Shown here piece by piece: positions 37,579 through 52,179 of a stretch of 64,000 bases of DNA. Source of the DNA: Bacteroides sp. (GTDB taxonomy: Bacteria > Bacteroidota > Bacteroidia > Bacteroidales > Muribaculaceae); assembly GCA_014802535.1 (NCBI GenBank), contig JAAVCC010000011.1, forward strand, positions 95,315 to 159,314. Direction: 5' to 3'. A program made the translations under genes and the position numbers. The first letter of the stretch is position 1; every line of letters starts with the position of its first letter. The notes below the pieces were generated by a model. That model was not told where the DNA came from. It ran no database searches and saw only the letters and a program-made list of their open reading frames with translations.

Positions 37579-38994
37579 ATGACTGAAGTCAATACAACAA
37601 TCTGCGCTATATCAACTCCTCCGGGAGTCGGTGGAATTGCAACTGCCCGTGTTTCAGGTCCTGAAGCAATTACCATTGTATCAAAGATTTGGAAGGGAGC
37701 TAATCTCGCCAAGGCAGCAACTCATACCGTCCATCTCGGTACGATTCTCGATTCTCAAGCTCAACCACTCGATCAAGCTGTCGCCACCATCTATCGCGCT
37801 CCAAAATCATTTACAGGCGAAGATACAATTGAAATCACGATCCACGGGTCACGCTATGTTCAACGCGAACTAATCACATCCCTAATAAACGCAGGTGCTA
37901 AAATTGCTCAACCCGGCGAATTTACACGTCGCGCATTCCTTTCAAACAAAATCAATCTTGTTGAAGCAGAGGCAATTGCCGATATAATTGCATCTTCATC
38001 ACGCGCAGCCAATCAAATTGCAGTTACTCAACTCCGCAACGGATTCTCTCGCAAATTGGCCGAACTCCGCGAACAACTTTTACAGTTGGCATCGCTCATC
38101 GAACTCGAACTCGACTTCTCAGAAGAAGACGTTACTTTTGCATCACGCAAACAATTGATTGACACAGCAAAAGCTATTGATACAGAAGTAAATCGACTTA
38201 AAAACTCTTTCAAAACCGGAGCCGCCATTAAAGACGGTATCCCTGTGGCAATTGCCGGTAAAACCAATGCCGGAAAATCGTCATTGCTCAACTCTATTCT
38301 TGAAGACGAAAGAGCCATCGTTAGCGACATCCACGGCACAACTCGCGACATTGTAGAAGAAAACATCGAAATTGGCGACTACCTTTTTCGCTTAATGGAT
38401 ACTGCAGGCATCCGTTCAACCGAAGACACAATCGAGCAAATCGGCATACAGCGATCAATCGAGACAATCCGCAAAGCTCGTTTGATTCTCGCCGTAATCG
38501 ACTCTACCGAACCGATTGATAAAGAATTCATTAACACCCTCATCGAAAACGCCGAGCAAAATATAAATAACCCCTCAATAATTTTCATATTCAACAAAAG
38601 AGACATCTCGACAACCGACGAATCAGACCTTAAATCAGCCATTGATGCTCTCCTACCCTCATCTATCGACCGTCATTACGTCAGTCTCTCAGCCAAACAT
38701 CGCGACAACATACCGGGACTACTCCAAACAATGACCCAAATCATTGACAATGAAGTAAATCCCGACCAATCACAAGAAAACATCCTCATAACCAACGCCC
38801 GCCACCTCCAAATCCTCACCGAAGCCGCCCAATCAACCGGTCGCCTCCTCCAATCCCTCACCTCCAACATCTCCGGCGAACTCATAGCCCAAGATATCCG
38901 CCAAACCATCTCCATCCTCGGCGAAATCACCGGCGACATCTCCTCCCAACAAATCCTCAACAACATCTTCTCAAGATTCTGCATCGGTAAGTAG
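37579..38994 (+). CDS. mnmE: tRNA modification GTPase MnmE (TrmE)
   Basis: TICAISTPPGVGGIA, G-domain GKTNAGKSSL / DTAG, and the invariant C-terminal FCIGK-stop. Confidence 0.95.
   Translation: MTEVNTTICAISTPPGVGGIATARVSGPEAITIVSKIWKGANLAKAATHTVHLGTILDSQAQPLDQAVATIYRAPKSFTGEDTIEITIHGSRYVQRELITSLINAGAKIAQPGEFTRRAFLSNKINLVEAEAIADIIASSSRAANQIAVTQLRNGFSRKLAELREQLLQLASLIELELDFSEEDVTFASRKQLIDTAKAIDTEVNRLKNSFKTGAAIKDGIPVAIAGKTNAGKSSLLNSILEDERAIVSDIHGTTRDIVEENIEIGDYLFRLMDTAGIRSTEDTIEQIGIQRSIETIRKARLILAVIDSTEPIDKEFINTLIENAEQNINNPSIIFIFNKRDISTTDESDLKSAIDALLPSSIDRHYVSLSAKHRDNIPGLLQTMTQIIDNEVNPDQSQENILITNARHLQILTEAAQSTGRLLQSLTSNISGELIAQDIRQTISILGEITGDISSQQILNNIFSRFCIGK
38977..38994 (+). repeat. Left copy of the imperfect direct repeat (ttctgcatcggtaagtag = FCIGK-stop)
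   Basis: These are the last 18 nt of mnmE. They match 52162-52179 at 14/18 positions, or 14/15 over the core tgcatcggYaagtag. Confidence 0.55.
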
Positions 38995-39329
38995 AAAATC
39001 TACTGAATACCAAAACATAGCATTGCGTATTATAATTAAAACTTTGAAGCAGGACATCACCTACCGCAACTCCCTCCTCCGCGCCCACTCCTTCGCCCGA
39101 TTGAAACGCCTCCACAAAGACTAATCCAAACATGATATAAAATCAGTCATAATAAATTTATAATGGCACAATATACTTGTTAAACAGACCGAGGTAAATC
39201 AACAAATCCAACCTCCCAACCTTCGACTTCTAAGCCAGATTTAGCTCTGCACCCGACAAATCCTACATTTGCCCCGTGTAGAGCTACCGTTTTCGCGCTC
39301 AGGCCCTTGCATATTCAAAAATAAATCGA

Positions 39330-39337
39330 TAACTTTG
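39330..39337 (+). promoter_or_regulatory. -7 box TAacTTTG upstream of the decayed HTH gene and the methyltransferase operon
   Basis: Perfect match 19 nt before the ATG at 39356. I saw no other TAnnTTTG between here and the methyltransferase start. Confidence 0.45.
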
Positions 39338-39355
39338 CGTTAAAATTTAATTTAT

Positions 39356-39588
39356 ATGACAAGGATGATAAAAATAGAACGTCAAAAATTAAATAGAATA
39401 AAAGCTGTATTGGCAGAAACAGGTCGTACAGGTAAAAGGCTCGCGGAGCAACTAGGAAAGACCCAGTAACTGTCTCTAAATGGTGTACTAACACATCTCA
39501 ACCTGATTTTTATACACTTTAAAATATTTCGTGTTTATTAAAAGTTGACGTTAGAACACTTATAACCAATAATAACAATCAGGATTAG
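39356..39588 (+). pseudogene. Frameshifted XRE-type HTH regulator (controller-like) pseudogene
   Basis: Frame 1 reads MTRMIKIERQKLNRIKAVLAETGRTGKRLAEQLGKTQ-stop. After a 1-nt shift the reading continues as PVTVSKWCTNTSQPDFYTL-stop-NISCLLKVDVRTLITNNNNQD-stop. The ATG and the final stop are in different frames. Confidence 0.7.
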
Positions 39589-39636
39589 ATTTGAAATTCT
39601 CCTTTTTGTAACATGAATTAAAATCGAATATTCTAA

Positions 39637-40674
39637 ATGGCAAAAAAAAGGATAGAGACGATACGTGTTTTTGAAGGTTTCGCTGGTTACGGTGGAGCAT
39701 CCTTTGCTATGAAACGGCTTAATAAAATATTACCTAATACACGATTTAAAGTAGTAGGATTTTCTGAGATTTGTCAATCTGCAGTCGATTTATATAATGC
39801 AAATCATTTTGATACTTCCACTAACCGGCCTCTAAAAAACTGGGGCGATATAACCGAGATTAACGCGATAGAACTTCCTGATTTTGATATGTTTACTGGG
39901 GGGTTCCCTTGTCAGCCATTTTCAACAGCTGGGAATCGTCTAGGAGAACTAGACCCAAGGGGGTCATTGTTTGCTGATATCGTAAAGATTTGTCAAGAGA
40001 AAATGCCAAAATACATTTTTTTAGAAAATGTAGTCAGTTTATGCAGAGGTAAATGTAAACCAACGTATGAGGCTATTCTTGATATCTTTAAAGCAATTGG
40101 GTATGATGTCAAAACAGCTATTTTAAATTCCAAAGATTATGGTGTCCCGCAAAATAGACAACGATTATGGTTTTTTGGAATTCGCAGCGATCAAGGTGGT
40201 TTACCAGAAGGATTCTCTATGGTTCCTCCTGTGCAGGAATTAACACATTTTATTGAAGACTATTTAGACAAAACGCCATCAGAAGAATTATATCGAACAC
40301 AGGCACAAATCGATCACATAAAAGACATTCATAACAAGCCAATTGACTACTTTCATGTTAATGAGCGATTGTGTTATGACTATTATAATAAAAAGATTCG
40401 TTTTGACCGCATTTGTATGACTGTGACACCACCAAATCATAATGTCGTAAGAATTGTAGAGCCACCAATAAATGGCAAGGATAGATTCCGAAAGCTTTCA
40501 ACTGACGAGCATTTTAGACTAATGGGATTTACAATAGATCAGAATTATCGTGAAATTGTATATCCTGAACACTTAACATATATTGCATTAGGAGAACGTG
40601 CAGGCAATGGCTGGGAGATTAATTTAGTTACTAAACTCCTAGATCACATTTTTAAACAGCTCAATCATGAATAA
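39637..40674 (+). CDS. DNA (cytosine-5)-methyltransferase
   Basis: Motif I FEGFAGYGG, motif IV GGFPCQPFS, motif VI FLENV, motif VIII QNRQRLWFFG, motif X GNGW. Confidence 0.95.
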   Translation: MAKKRIETIRVFEGFAGYGGASFAMKRLNKILPNTRFKVVGFSEICQSAVDLYNANHFDTSTNRPLKNWGDITEINAIELPDFDMFTGGFPCQPFSTAGNRLGELDPRGSLFADIVKICQEKMPKYIFLENVVSLCRGKCKPTYEAILDIFKAIGYDVKTAILNSKDYGVPQNRQRLWFFGIRSDQGGLPEGFSMVPPVQELTHFIEDYLDKTPSEELYRTQAQIDHIKDIHNKPIDYFHVNERLCYDYYNKKIRFDRICMTVTPPNHNVVRIVEPPINGKDRFRKLSTDEHFRLMGFTIDQNYREIVYPEHLTYIALGERAGNGWEINLVTKLLDHIFKQLNHE

Positions 40675-51970: not shown

Positions 51971-51975
51971 TCTGT

Positions 51976-51997
51976 TCCATTGATTTAATGGATTTTT
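51976..51997 (+). terminator. Weak rho-independent terminator after the CD-NTase gene
   Basis: A 6-bp AT-rich stem tccatt/aatgga followed by TTTTT. Confidence 0.35.
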
Positions 51998-52033
51998 CCT
52001 CATTTATATAGAATATTATCCCCCATTAATCGT

Positions 52034-52041
52034 TATATTTG
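52034..52041 (+). promoter_or_regulatory. Orphan -7 box TAtaTTTG followed only by a 14-codon ORF
   Basis: A perfect TAnnTTTG, then an ATG at 52055 reading MGALREPELLKLVV-stop. Probably the stump of a deleted gene. Confidence 0.3.
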
Positions 52042-52161
52042 CAGACAGTAAAGAATGGGTGCTTTAAGAGAGCCGGAATTGTTAAAATTGGTGGTGTAAA
52101 TCCCGTAAAATACAATTTTGTATACTTAAAGCGCAACTACCTAACTCTCAATCTTATGCTA

Positions 52162-52179
52162 CATTGCATCGGCAAGTAG
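52162..52179 (+). repeat. Right copy of the imperfect direct repeat (cattgcatcggcaagtag = HCIGK-stop)
   Basis: An orphan in-frame ...NLMLHCIGK-stop, resembling the mnmE C-terminus NIFSRFCIGK-stop. It lies in non-coding wreckage at the far end of the island. Confidence 0.55.

Follow-up and report, generated by a model that had tools for sequence, protein, structure and literature searches.

Why should a run of antiphage defense genes begin exactly at the stop codon of mnmE (= trmE), which encodes a tRNA modification GTPase, and end at an imperfect copy of that gene's last codons? This arrangement is found in a 64-kb stretch of contig JAAVCC010000011.1 from a Muribaculaceae genome (hereafter the window, meaning the whole 64,000 nt). 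An initial annotation of the window proposed that the genes between the two copies form a defense island without an integrase, that this island is an immobilized remnant, and that the 3' end of mnmE serves as an integration hotspot in Bacteroidales too, as it does for SGI1-family islands in Proteobacteria. We consider it very probable that the DNA from 38995 to 52179 is a decayed, mosaic integrative mobilizable element (IME), resembling a cis-mobilizable element (CIME), that occupies an attachment (att) site in the last 15 nt of mnmE. The observations that carry this view concern the structure of the junctions, the boundaries of homology, the association of integrase genes with the repeated core, tandem arrays of elements, polymorphism among strains, and lesions in genes.

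Two copies of the mnmE tail

The last 18 nt of mnmE (TTCTGCATCGGTAAGTAG, 38977-38994) recur as CATTGCATCGGCAAGTAG at 52162-52179. Both copies lie where the initial annotation had placed them, with identity at 14 of 18 positions and at 14 of 15 in the core, but the unit that is repeated is 15 nt long rather than 18. It starts at TGC, and the three nucleotides before it differ in every copy found outside of mnmE. The two cores, whose type can also be written as TGCATCGG, are located as follows.

38980-38994, + strand: attL core (copy A), TGCATCGGTAAGTAG, the final four codons and stop codon of mnmE
52165-52179, + strand: attR core (copy B), TGCATCGGCAAGTAG, intergenic

Synteny with the closest relative (G004) and with the sister strains L170, L177, and L180 ends at copy A. 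At the far side, homology to L082, L168, L169, and L185-L191 ceases no more than 1 nt from the last base of copy B. The DNA between the copies has a GC content of 0.33-0.35, compared with 0.42-0.46 in the flanks. Copies A and B differ by GGT versus GGC and, because relatives carry GGC, this difference fits weakly with a distal part of attL that would have come from the element and a distal part of attR that would have come from the chromosome.

A degenerate form of the core, TGCATCGGNAARTRR, occurs twice in the window, both times on the + strand. Shuffled sequences give an expectation of 0.20 occurrences, and none of 100 shuffles reached two. A search of the whole 2.45-Mb genome (G000), which the initial annotation had called for, returned three copies. 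The third, at C3:241019, was considered as a second att site or attP and rejected. It lies on the opposite strand inside an intact helicase open reading frame (ORF) of more than 964 aa, where C3:241016-241033 shares a 17-nt identity with copy B, and its flanks have no similarity to the window. Because about 0.15 chance matches to the degenerate core are expected per genome, this copy is treated as what it is, a chance match.

The right junction

Copy B stands among the following features.

49783-52179, + strand: module of 2.4 kb with the genes of a cyclic oligonucleotide-based antiphage signaling system (CBASS), right arm, and core; at least seven contigs from other samples carry it at 97% identity
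52022-52164, + strand: conserved right arm of the element, with a -7-like box and a long hairpin
52180-52300, no strand: haplotype-specific spacer
52477-53691, + strand: gene for a Sel1-repeat protein (Pfam Sel1), the conserved right flank, followed by genes for M3 peptidase, PIF1, and HSP90 in all sister strains

The right arm, about 155 nt directly before copy B, is shared with other elements. Positions 52028-52179 of the window are 80% identical to L082 over 152 nt (E = 1.4e-23); this match runs up to the final base of the core, where the left end of a new IME begins in L082. The same arm of about 155 nt is present in Duncaniella muris DSM 103720 and in a metagenome-assembled genome (MAG; L169), where it also ends at the core and has unrelated DNA on both sides. 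In six contigs (L185-L187 and L189-L191), identity to the CBASS-arm module ceases at 52180 and a different sequence, of type delta, then follows. The arm-core junctions of L082, L168, L169, and L185-L191 are probably independent, because the DNA after the core differs in each, which speaks against descent from one ancestral locus.

Copy B is a genuine attR junction, and because the homology that its upstream arm shows to other elements goes no further than the core, copies A and B represent a duplication of the att site. The likeness that had been seen between the codons before copy B (NLML) and the mnmE tail (NIFSRF) is spurious, because the DNA before copy B is the right arm of an element and is homologous to other elements rather than to mnmE.

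Four copies of the right arm were compared (window 52022-52164, L167:2900-3062, L168:5915-6077, and L169:95-257). All four contain the Bacteroidetes -7-like box TAnnTTTG, which in the window reads TATATTTG at 52034-52041. A long hairpin, whose outer stem of 10 bp pairs GUGCUUUAAG with CUUAAAGCGC, can be folded from the arm, and the four sequences hold only one compensatory pair for it. Neither the right arm nor the whole locus matches an Rfam family. The predicted promoter box points to the core, and thereby toward the HTH_17 and integrase genes in a circular element and toward the Sel1 gene here. An arm with an outward promoter-like box and a hairpin may switch on the int and xis genes only once the element has circularized.

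In contig L184, the CBASS-arm module ends in a core that is cut after TGCATCGGCAA (L184:5547-5560), and ordinary chromosomal genes follow with no mnmE nearby. This truncated core reflects either an insertion at a secondary site or a deletion. If it was a secondary-site insertion, the crossover falls within the first 11 nt of the core. Logan contig L053, which starts 59 nt before copy B and is identical to the window, was set aside as uninformative.

The spacer beyond the core (52180-52300) is either older debris or ancestral sequence from downstream of mnmE. A colinear TTAAGTCGCGGATT match to L180 at 52245-52258, itself marginal (21 of 500 shuffles), hints that the old DNA may start by ~52245.

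A hotspot shared across Bacteroidales

Three other species of the genus (G008, G003, and G012) have mnmE genes that are 56-79% identical to that of the window, and the DNA after the stop codon is nearly alike in all three. In these species, mnmE is followed by genes for an HTH_17 protein, a tyrosine integrase with Arm-DNA-bind_5, SAM_5, and Phage_integrase domains, cargo, a second HTH_17 protein, DUF3987, DUF6371, and a MobA/VirD2 relaxase. Judging by these genes, the element after mnmE is an IME.

A search of species-representative genomes with this integrase returned 334 relatives, of which 70 loci had 2.7 kb or more of DNA upstream and were assessed. A core is present on the same strand in 60 of these 70, at a median of 1237 nt upstream of the integrase gene, whereas chance would provide one at about 0.0005 per locus. 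An open mnmE frame precedes the core at 50 of the 60 loci. The DNA before the core is noncoding at the other 10, where it belongs to the right end of another element that stands ahead in a tandem array. The hosts belong to Muribaculaceae, Bacteroides, Phocaeicola, Segatella, Parabacteroides, and Alistipes.

Cores also cluster within single genomes. A whole-genome search of 12 of the host genomes with the core pattern yielded 40 matches, compared with four for a reversed-pattern control, and the matches cluster on one strand. The complete 3.6-Mb Muribaculaceae chromosome G041 (OX620685.1) has five cores spaced 20-35 kb apart between 676215 and 776153 and none elsewhere. Likewise, five same-strand cores extend over 113 kb (1835690-1949106) in G042 (CP061009.1). 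Such five-core arrays of 100-113 kb imply that very large accretion arrays have probably formed behind mnmE. The closest relative, G004, has two cores outside of mnmE, 381 nt apart, on the contig with its own element.

These integrase loci and tandem arrays, together with five different contents in sister strains (described below), bear out the proposed role of the mnmE 3' end as a Bacteroidales integration hotspot. For Bacteroides, Bacteroidales, or Muribaculaceae, we found no paper that describes an attachment site in mnmE or trmE. The site, and how widely it is used in Bacteroidota, are new and apparently undescribed. We lean, with some reserve, toward a broader view in which the last 15 nt of mnmE would be the shared att site of an undescribed large superfamily of Bacteroidota mobilizable elements with tyrosine integrases, having several types of left end and right arm and at least two integrase lineages that are 53% identical. 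Through repeated integration and loss of backbones, these elements would build tandem arrays of up to ~100 kb with mostly antiphage cargo, and the site would be the principal defense-island hotspot of gut Muribaculaceae, Bacteroides, and Segatella, convergent with the SGI1 site.

At least six types of left end follow the core among the genomes (junctions L147-L166, L002, L011, and L018), most of them with their own terminator hairpin. In G004, mnmE is followed by the left-end type that starts CCGGCGGTTAAAGA, and the same type occurs at internal junctions in G041 and G042. The presence of several left-end types at one core indicates that several element families share one att site. Contigs end 40-350 nt past mnmE in about 10 of 40 related MAGs (L002, L009, L012, L013, L017-L019, and others). 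The hotspot explains why metagenome assemblies break so frequently right after mnmE, because att and left-end sequences are repeated and strains are polymorphic there.

Two individual loci are also worth recording. A degenerate copy of the tail stands in tandem right after the mnmE stop codon in L019 (G015:C126), reading ttctgcatcggcaagtag A TTCTGCGTGGGCAAGTGA, and may be a scar left when an element was excised or an array collapsed. The G004 element has, behind its XRE gene, a cargo gene for a 2284-aa protein (L064:1188-8042, G004:C47). Its Sacsin-domain match is weak and below the Pfam cut-off, and the protein may be a large uncharacterized defense protein.

Different contents in the same slot

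Sister strains were defined as contigs whose MnmE and Sel1 proteins fall into the same 90% clusters as those of the window, and their flanks are 94-98% identical to it. The slot between mnmE and the Sel1 gene is occupied as follows.

Window: Mza genes, a 270-aa gene, and CBASS; no integrase
L170 and L173: HTH_17, an integrase 53% identical to that of the first family, a truncated helicase gene, WYL, and a 95-aa gene
L174: the integrase element of L170 and L173, situated behind the right arm and core of another element (tandem)
L177: Dnd cluster and an Mrr/nSTAND gene
L180: XRE, McrB-like ATPase, HNH nucleases, and a methyltransferase
L183: radical-SAM genes, FtsK, a full-length helicase gene, WYL, and the 95-aa gene also found in L170

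Five different contents thus stand between the same mnmE and Sel1 flanks. The initial annotation had suggested looking for other cargo accompanied by a recombinase beside mnmE, and L170 is such a case, with HTH_17 and tyrosine integrase genes adjoining mnmE. The nucleotide identity of mnmE to the sister strains (94-98%) ends at 38994-38996, at the stop codon or within 2 nt of it, and this left junction is the same in every sister haplotype. The right part of L170 is a deletion derivative of the L183 type, in which an element backbone is fused to the truncated helicase gene of the older island. Fusions of backbone to cargo by deletion therefore do occur at the mnmE-Sel1 locus.

Genes and debris within the island

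From mnmE to the second core, the locus contains the following features in addition to those given above.

37579-38994, + strand: mnmE, tRNA modification GTPase, intact, 471 aa, ending in FCIGK-stop (Pfam TrmE_N, MnmE_helical, MMR_HSR1)
38995-39046, no strand: 52-nt spacer of unassigned origin
39047-39124, + strand: 3' stub (75 nt, 25 codons plus stop) of a mobilization-module ORF (blastn 84.5% over 71 nt; tblastn 64% over 25 aa, E = 1.9e-6)
39196-48397, + strand: XRE-Mza module of 9.2 kb, 98% identical to L195, L192, and L194
39365-39588, + strand: XRE-type helix-turn-helix pseudogene, with a 1-nt deletion near 39457 and CAA>TAA near 39520 relative to the intact 74-aa gene of L195
39637-40674, + strand: C-5 cytosine DNA methyltransferase (Dcm), the Mza methylase (Pfam DNA_methylase 7.5e-57; PADLOC MTase_II)
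40677-42143, + strand: MzaB, HATPase_c_3 (PADLOC MzaB 6.9e-106; Pfam)
42143-45013, + strand: MzaC, Z1 domain and helicase-like N terminus (PADLOC MzaC 3e-147; Pfam Z1)
44988-46013, + strand: MzaD, DUF4420, PD-(D/E)XK-like (PADLOC MzaD 2.5e-19; Pfam DUF4420 7.5e-71)
46006-48312, + strand: MzaE, AIPR (PADLOC MzaE 4.9e-79; Pfam AIPR, AIPR_N)
48323-48415, + strand: 30-aa truncated copy of a 56-aa ORF found after MzaE in L195 and L192; homology stops at 48397
48514-48684, + strand: Fic-family pseudogene, N-terminal 56-aa fragment, 80-86% identical in nucleotides to full-length Fic genes in L104, L195, and L192
48839-49651, - strand: 270-aa gene between the Fic debris and CBASS, with a homolog of 73% nucleotide identity in G012:C35
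49815-50930, + strand: patatin-like phospholipase, CBASS effector (Pfam Patatin; PADLOC phospholipase effector 1.9e-89)
50936-51970, + strand: CD-NTase (oligonucleotide cyclase), type I CBASS (PADLOC Cyclase 5.5e-122; PF26305 CD_NTase_C)

Between the core copies, neither the ORFs of the window nor Pfam revealed an integrase or transposase, and HTH_17, relaxase, and DUF3987 genes are likewise absent from this interval. A tblastn search of the host genome with the backbone proteins of a related intact element found nothing comparable anywhere, and no integrase or mobilization genes of this family. What survives is partial. The full-length homolog of the stub is a 227-aa ORF that lies directly after the MobC gene (PF05713) in G004:C47. 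Seven IMEs have intact homologs of the XRE gene where backbone gives way to cargo, 9-10.5 kb downstream from the integrase gene. The Fic fragment was recognized through its full-length homologs: the L104 Fic protein is 341 aa long and bears a HPWVDGNGRTTR motif, and Pfam Fic matches the L195 and L192 genes. Pfam named no family for the 30-aa and 56-aa fragments or for the 227-aa ORF, and the 270-aa gene has no Pfam or PADLOC match.

All five Mza genes are intact relative to L195, including a methyltransferase with 340 of 345 aa identical, and they form a complete candidate defense operon in canonical order. The CBASS genes are of type I, comprising a CD-NTase and an adjacent effector without Cap2 or Cap3, and their neighbors are unrelated. 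The PADLOC-DB models for Mza and type I CBASS match all component families strongly, nothing about either system is unusual, and both are presumed to be active.

Origin of the island

Three parts make up the island: a 200-nt scrap of one backbone, the XRE-Mza module and, beyond a stretch of debris, the CBASS-right-arm module. Because each of the two modules circulates separately in other genomes, the island appears to have been built by accretion or recombination and then reduced by deletion. A view of the XRE-Mza module in a less decayed setting is provided by L195, where a MobA/VirD2 relaxase gene, a 191-aa ORF, an intact XRE gene, Mza, the 56-aa ORF, and Fic follow one another, with 98% identity to the window over 9.2 kb. 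The idea of an integrase-less remnant holds up well in this light, given the truncated mobilization ORF, the XRE pseudogene, the Fic fragment, the position of Mza after a relaxase gene in L195, and a genome that has no integrase of the family.

From the structures described above, we infer the recombination chemistry and the order of events as follows. In intact members, genes for HTH_17 (excisionase-type) and a Bacteroidota-type tyrosine integrase adjoin attL, and are followed by DUF3987, DUF6371, MobC, and MobA/VirD2 relaxase genes, then XRE, variable cargo, and a right arm ending in the core. The integrase would recombine the TGCATCGGNAARTRR sequence of the element (attP) with the identical mnmE end, which would restore the ORF and duplicate the core at both ends, so that attL would lie at the gene and attR at the opposite end. 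The left end of the element would then provide the mnmE terminator. Further elements could enter at either core and produce tandem arrays, and illegitimate deletions would strip backbones. The island in the window would in this way have lost ~10 kb of backbone, including the integrase gene. These steps are consistent with the known behavior of IMEs with tyrosine integrases.

One hallmark of the mnmE-IME family, an integrase and HTH_17 gene pair ~1.2 kb past the TGCATCGGNAARTRR core, is seen in the relatives and L170 and is absent from the window, which makes the window element a derivative rather than a functional family member. A second, a right arm ending in the core with homology that stops at the stop codon, is present in the window. 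The description of the island as immobilized was too strong. The integrase has indeed been lost but, because attL and attR are intact, mobilization in cis by an incoming element could in principle occur.

Several observations weigh against this decayed-IME account. The flank shared with sister strains starts again 66-146 nt past copy B rather than at it. Identity to the sister strains resumes at 52301, 52326, or 52380 depending on island type and not at 52180, leaving 52180-52300 unexplained by the att model. Island boundaries in the sister strains coincide with the repeats on the left, always at the mnmE stop codon, and not on the right. The other four sister-strain islands have no core at the right end, and among the five haplotypes seen only that of the window has both att copies. 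An empty site with mnmE directly before the Sel1 gene, which the initial annotation had anticipated, was found in none of 40 relatives or the sister-strain contigs. The first 52-55 nt after attL show no significant similarity to the left ends of canonical IMEs, since 19-118 of 300 shuffles reach equal scores. A family-wide nhmmer profile of right arms, built without the window and L082, placed the region before copy B at rank 2 with E = 3.3. Finally, the L195 contig is too short to show an mnmE-type integrase on its backbone, and L192 carries the Mza module without any core nearby.

The strongest competing reading refines this explanation rather than presenting a true alternative to it, and we regard it as possible, although the odds are somewhat against it. 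According to this reading, two integrations took place, an Mza element first and a CBASS element second. The internal att site was then deleted, and the Fic debris at 48.3-48.7 kb marks the old junction. Both modules do circulate apart and have sharp ends, L104 and L195 have Fic genes close to right ends, and tandem accretion is common at the mnmE site. However, a search for a degenerate core between the Mza and CBASS blocks detected none, hits with two or fewer errors being at chance level.

Considerably less likely is a history in which the island never had an integrase. It would instead be an XRE-headed cargo cassette (core, short spacer, XRE, cargo, right arm, core), inserted or exchanged by integrases supplied in trans, or through homologous recombination between conserved segments (the pre-XRE block and the right arm). 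This layout is also seen straight after mnmE in L180, which has an intact XRE gene and no integrase and shares the pre-XRE block from 39196. Two successive pre-XRE/XRE-headed modules occur in L192, and the limits of modules at 39196, 48397, 49783, and 52180 are sharp and recurrent. This history is difficult to reconcile with the truncated 3' stub of a post-MobC ORF (as in G004) that is retained in the window, with the same module being contiguous with a relaxase gene in L195, and with XRE genes lying 9-10.5 kb downstream from int within intact IMEs. The backbone of L170, joined by deletion to the truncated helicase gene of an older island, also speaks against it.

The second XRE-headed module of L192 merits separate description. 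At L192:19750-20149, a second copy of the pre-XRE segment (window 39196-39310) and an XRE-like gene head a cargo that contains HsdM, 16 kb downstream and with no core near. The pre-XRE/XRE segment and the right arm may serve as homology anchors for cargo swaps between elements.

The notion that copy B is a chance 15-mer and that the defense genes were gathered without site-specific recombination, for example by homologous replacement via conserved flanks, can draw on the fortuitous third core at C3:241019, on the ragged, coreless right ends of sister-strain islands, and on the nonsignificant generic right-arm profile, but it is close to refuted and exceedingly improbable because homology of ~150 nt to 2.4 kb from at least nine independent loci ends no more than 1 nt from the last base of copy B, cores outside of mnmE are ~10-fold over-represented, on the same strand and clustered near mnmE, and the integrase is tightly linked to the core.

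Comparison with known mobile elements

The decayed IME favored here is a known kind of object, an IME/CIME remnant that carries known defense systems. The model in which ICEs and IMEs evolve by accretion and decay is exemplified by ICESt1/CIME elements at the 3' end of fda in Streptococcus thermophilus (PMC5704250), and a remnant with both cores appears to fit the published definition of a CIME (PMC5704250). Like a CIME, the island retains attL and attR, its site is one of tandem stacking followed by decay through deletions, and it has no integrase, HTH_17, relaxase, or DUF3987 gene, with only the 75-nt stub and the XRE pseudogene remaining. Decay from an IME also fits the contiguity of relaxase, XRE, and Mza in L195, the boundary position of XRE in seven IMEs, and the post-MobC origin of the stub. 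The differences from ICESt1 and its CIMEs include the phylum, the target gene, the integrase family, and the composition of the island as a two-module mosaic with antiphage cargo.

Mobilizable islands of the SGI1/MGIVchHai6 type insert at the 3' end of trmE in Gammaproteobacteria (PMC8409611). The parallel drawn with them in the initial annotation is sound for the target site and does not extend to membership in the same family. Both groups use the same part of the same gene, the last codons including CIGK-stop. In both, a tyrosine integrase restores the ORF and leaves imperfect direct repeats, and both are mobilizable and nonconjugative. The core genes of SGI1 are mpsA/mpsB, traN, traG/traH, and sgaCD (PMC8409611), and Pfam annotation of the window and its intact relatives contains no MpsA/MpsB, TraN/TraG/TraH, or SgaCD, although no search was aimed at SGI1 proteins. 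The Bacteroidales elements instead have MobC, a MobA/VirD2 relaxase, DUF3987/DUF6371, and an integrase with Arm-DNA-bind_5 and SAM_5 domains. Mobilization by IncA/IncC plasmids via AcaCD-responsive promoters is a feature of SGI1 and is not expected in Bacteroidales. The shared target is best read as a probable convergence on a highly conserved sequence.

Among Bacteroidota elements, NBU1 and NBU2 use tyrosine integrases to enter the 3' ends of tRNA-Leu and tRNA-Ser genes (PMC5704250). They share with the mnmE elements the status of Bacteroidota IMEs, a tyrosine integrase at one end, a MobA-type relaxase, and a short identical core at the 3' end of a conserved gene. The mnmE elements differ by targeting a protein gene, by having HTH_17 between attL and int, by their larger backbones, and by their defense cargo behind XRE. 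Their backbone is NBU-like in its general layout. A 2017 review of IMEs lists tRNA-Leu, tRNA-Ser, and preferred or AT-rich sites as targets in Bacteroidetes and has no entry for mnmE (PMC5704250).

Implications

The mnmE slot offers a sequence-defined place in which to find and compare the variable antiphage arsenal of abundant gut Bacteroidales. Within one species, the slot can hold Mza with CBASS, a Dnd cluster with Mrr/nSTAND, McrB-like and HNH genes, or sets of radical-SAM and helicase genes. The use of the same invariant CIGK-stop codons by unrelated integrases in two phyla would be an instance of convergent evolution. Moreover, the integrase and its 15-nt site could serve as a tool for site-specific integration in Muribaculaceae and Bacteroides. 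Intact elements are present in cultured strains, for example D. muris DSM 103720 and Paramuribaculum intestinale DSM 100749.

Genes beyond the right flank

The synteny of mnmE with the M3 peptidase gene is not conserved beyond the species of the window. This peptidase gene (53859-56090) is a third paralog beside those on C9 and C13 (63% and 41% identity, respectively). Within the genus it is confined to one subclade (G000, G004, G012, and G007), and its upstream neighbors differ in each of these genomes.

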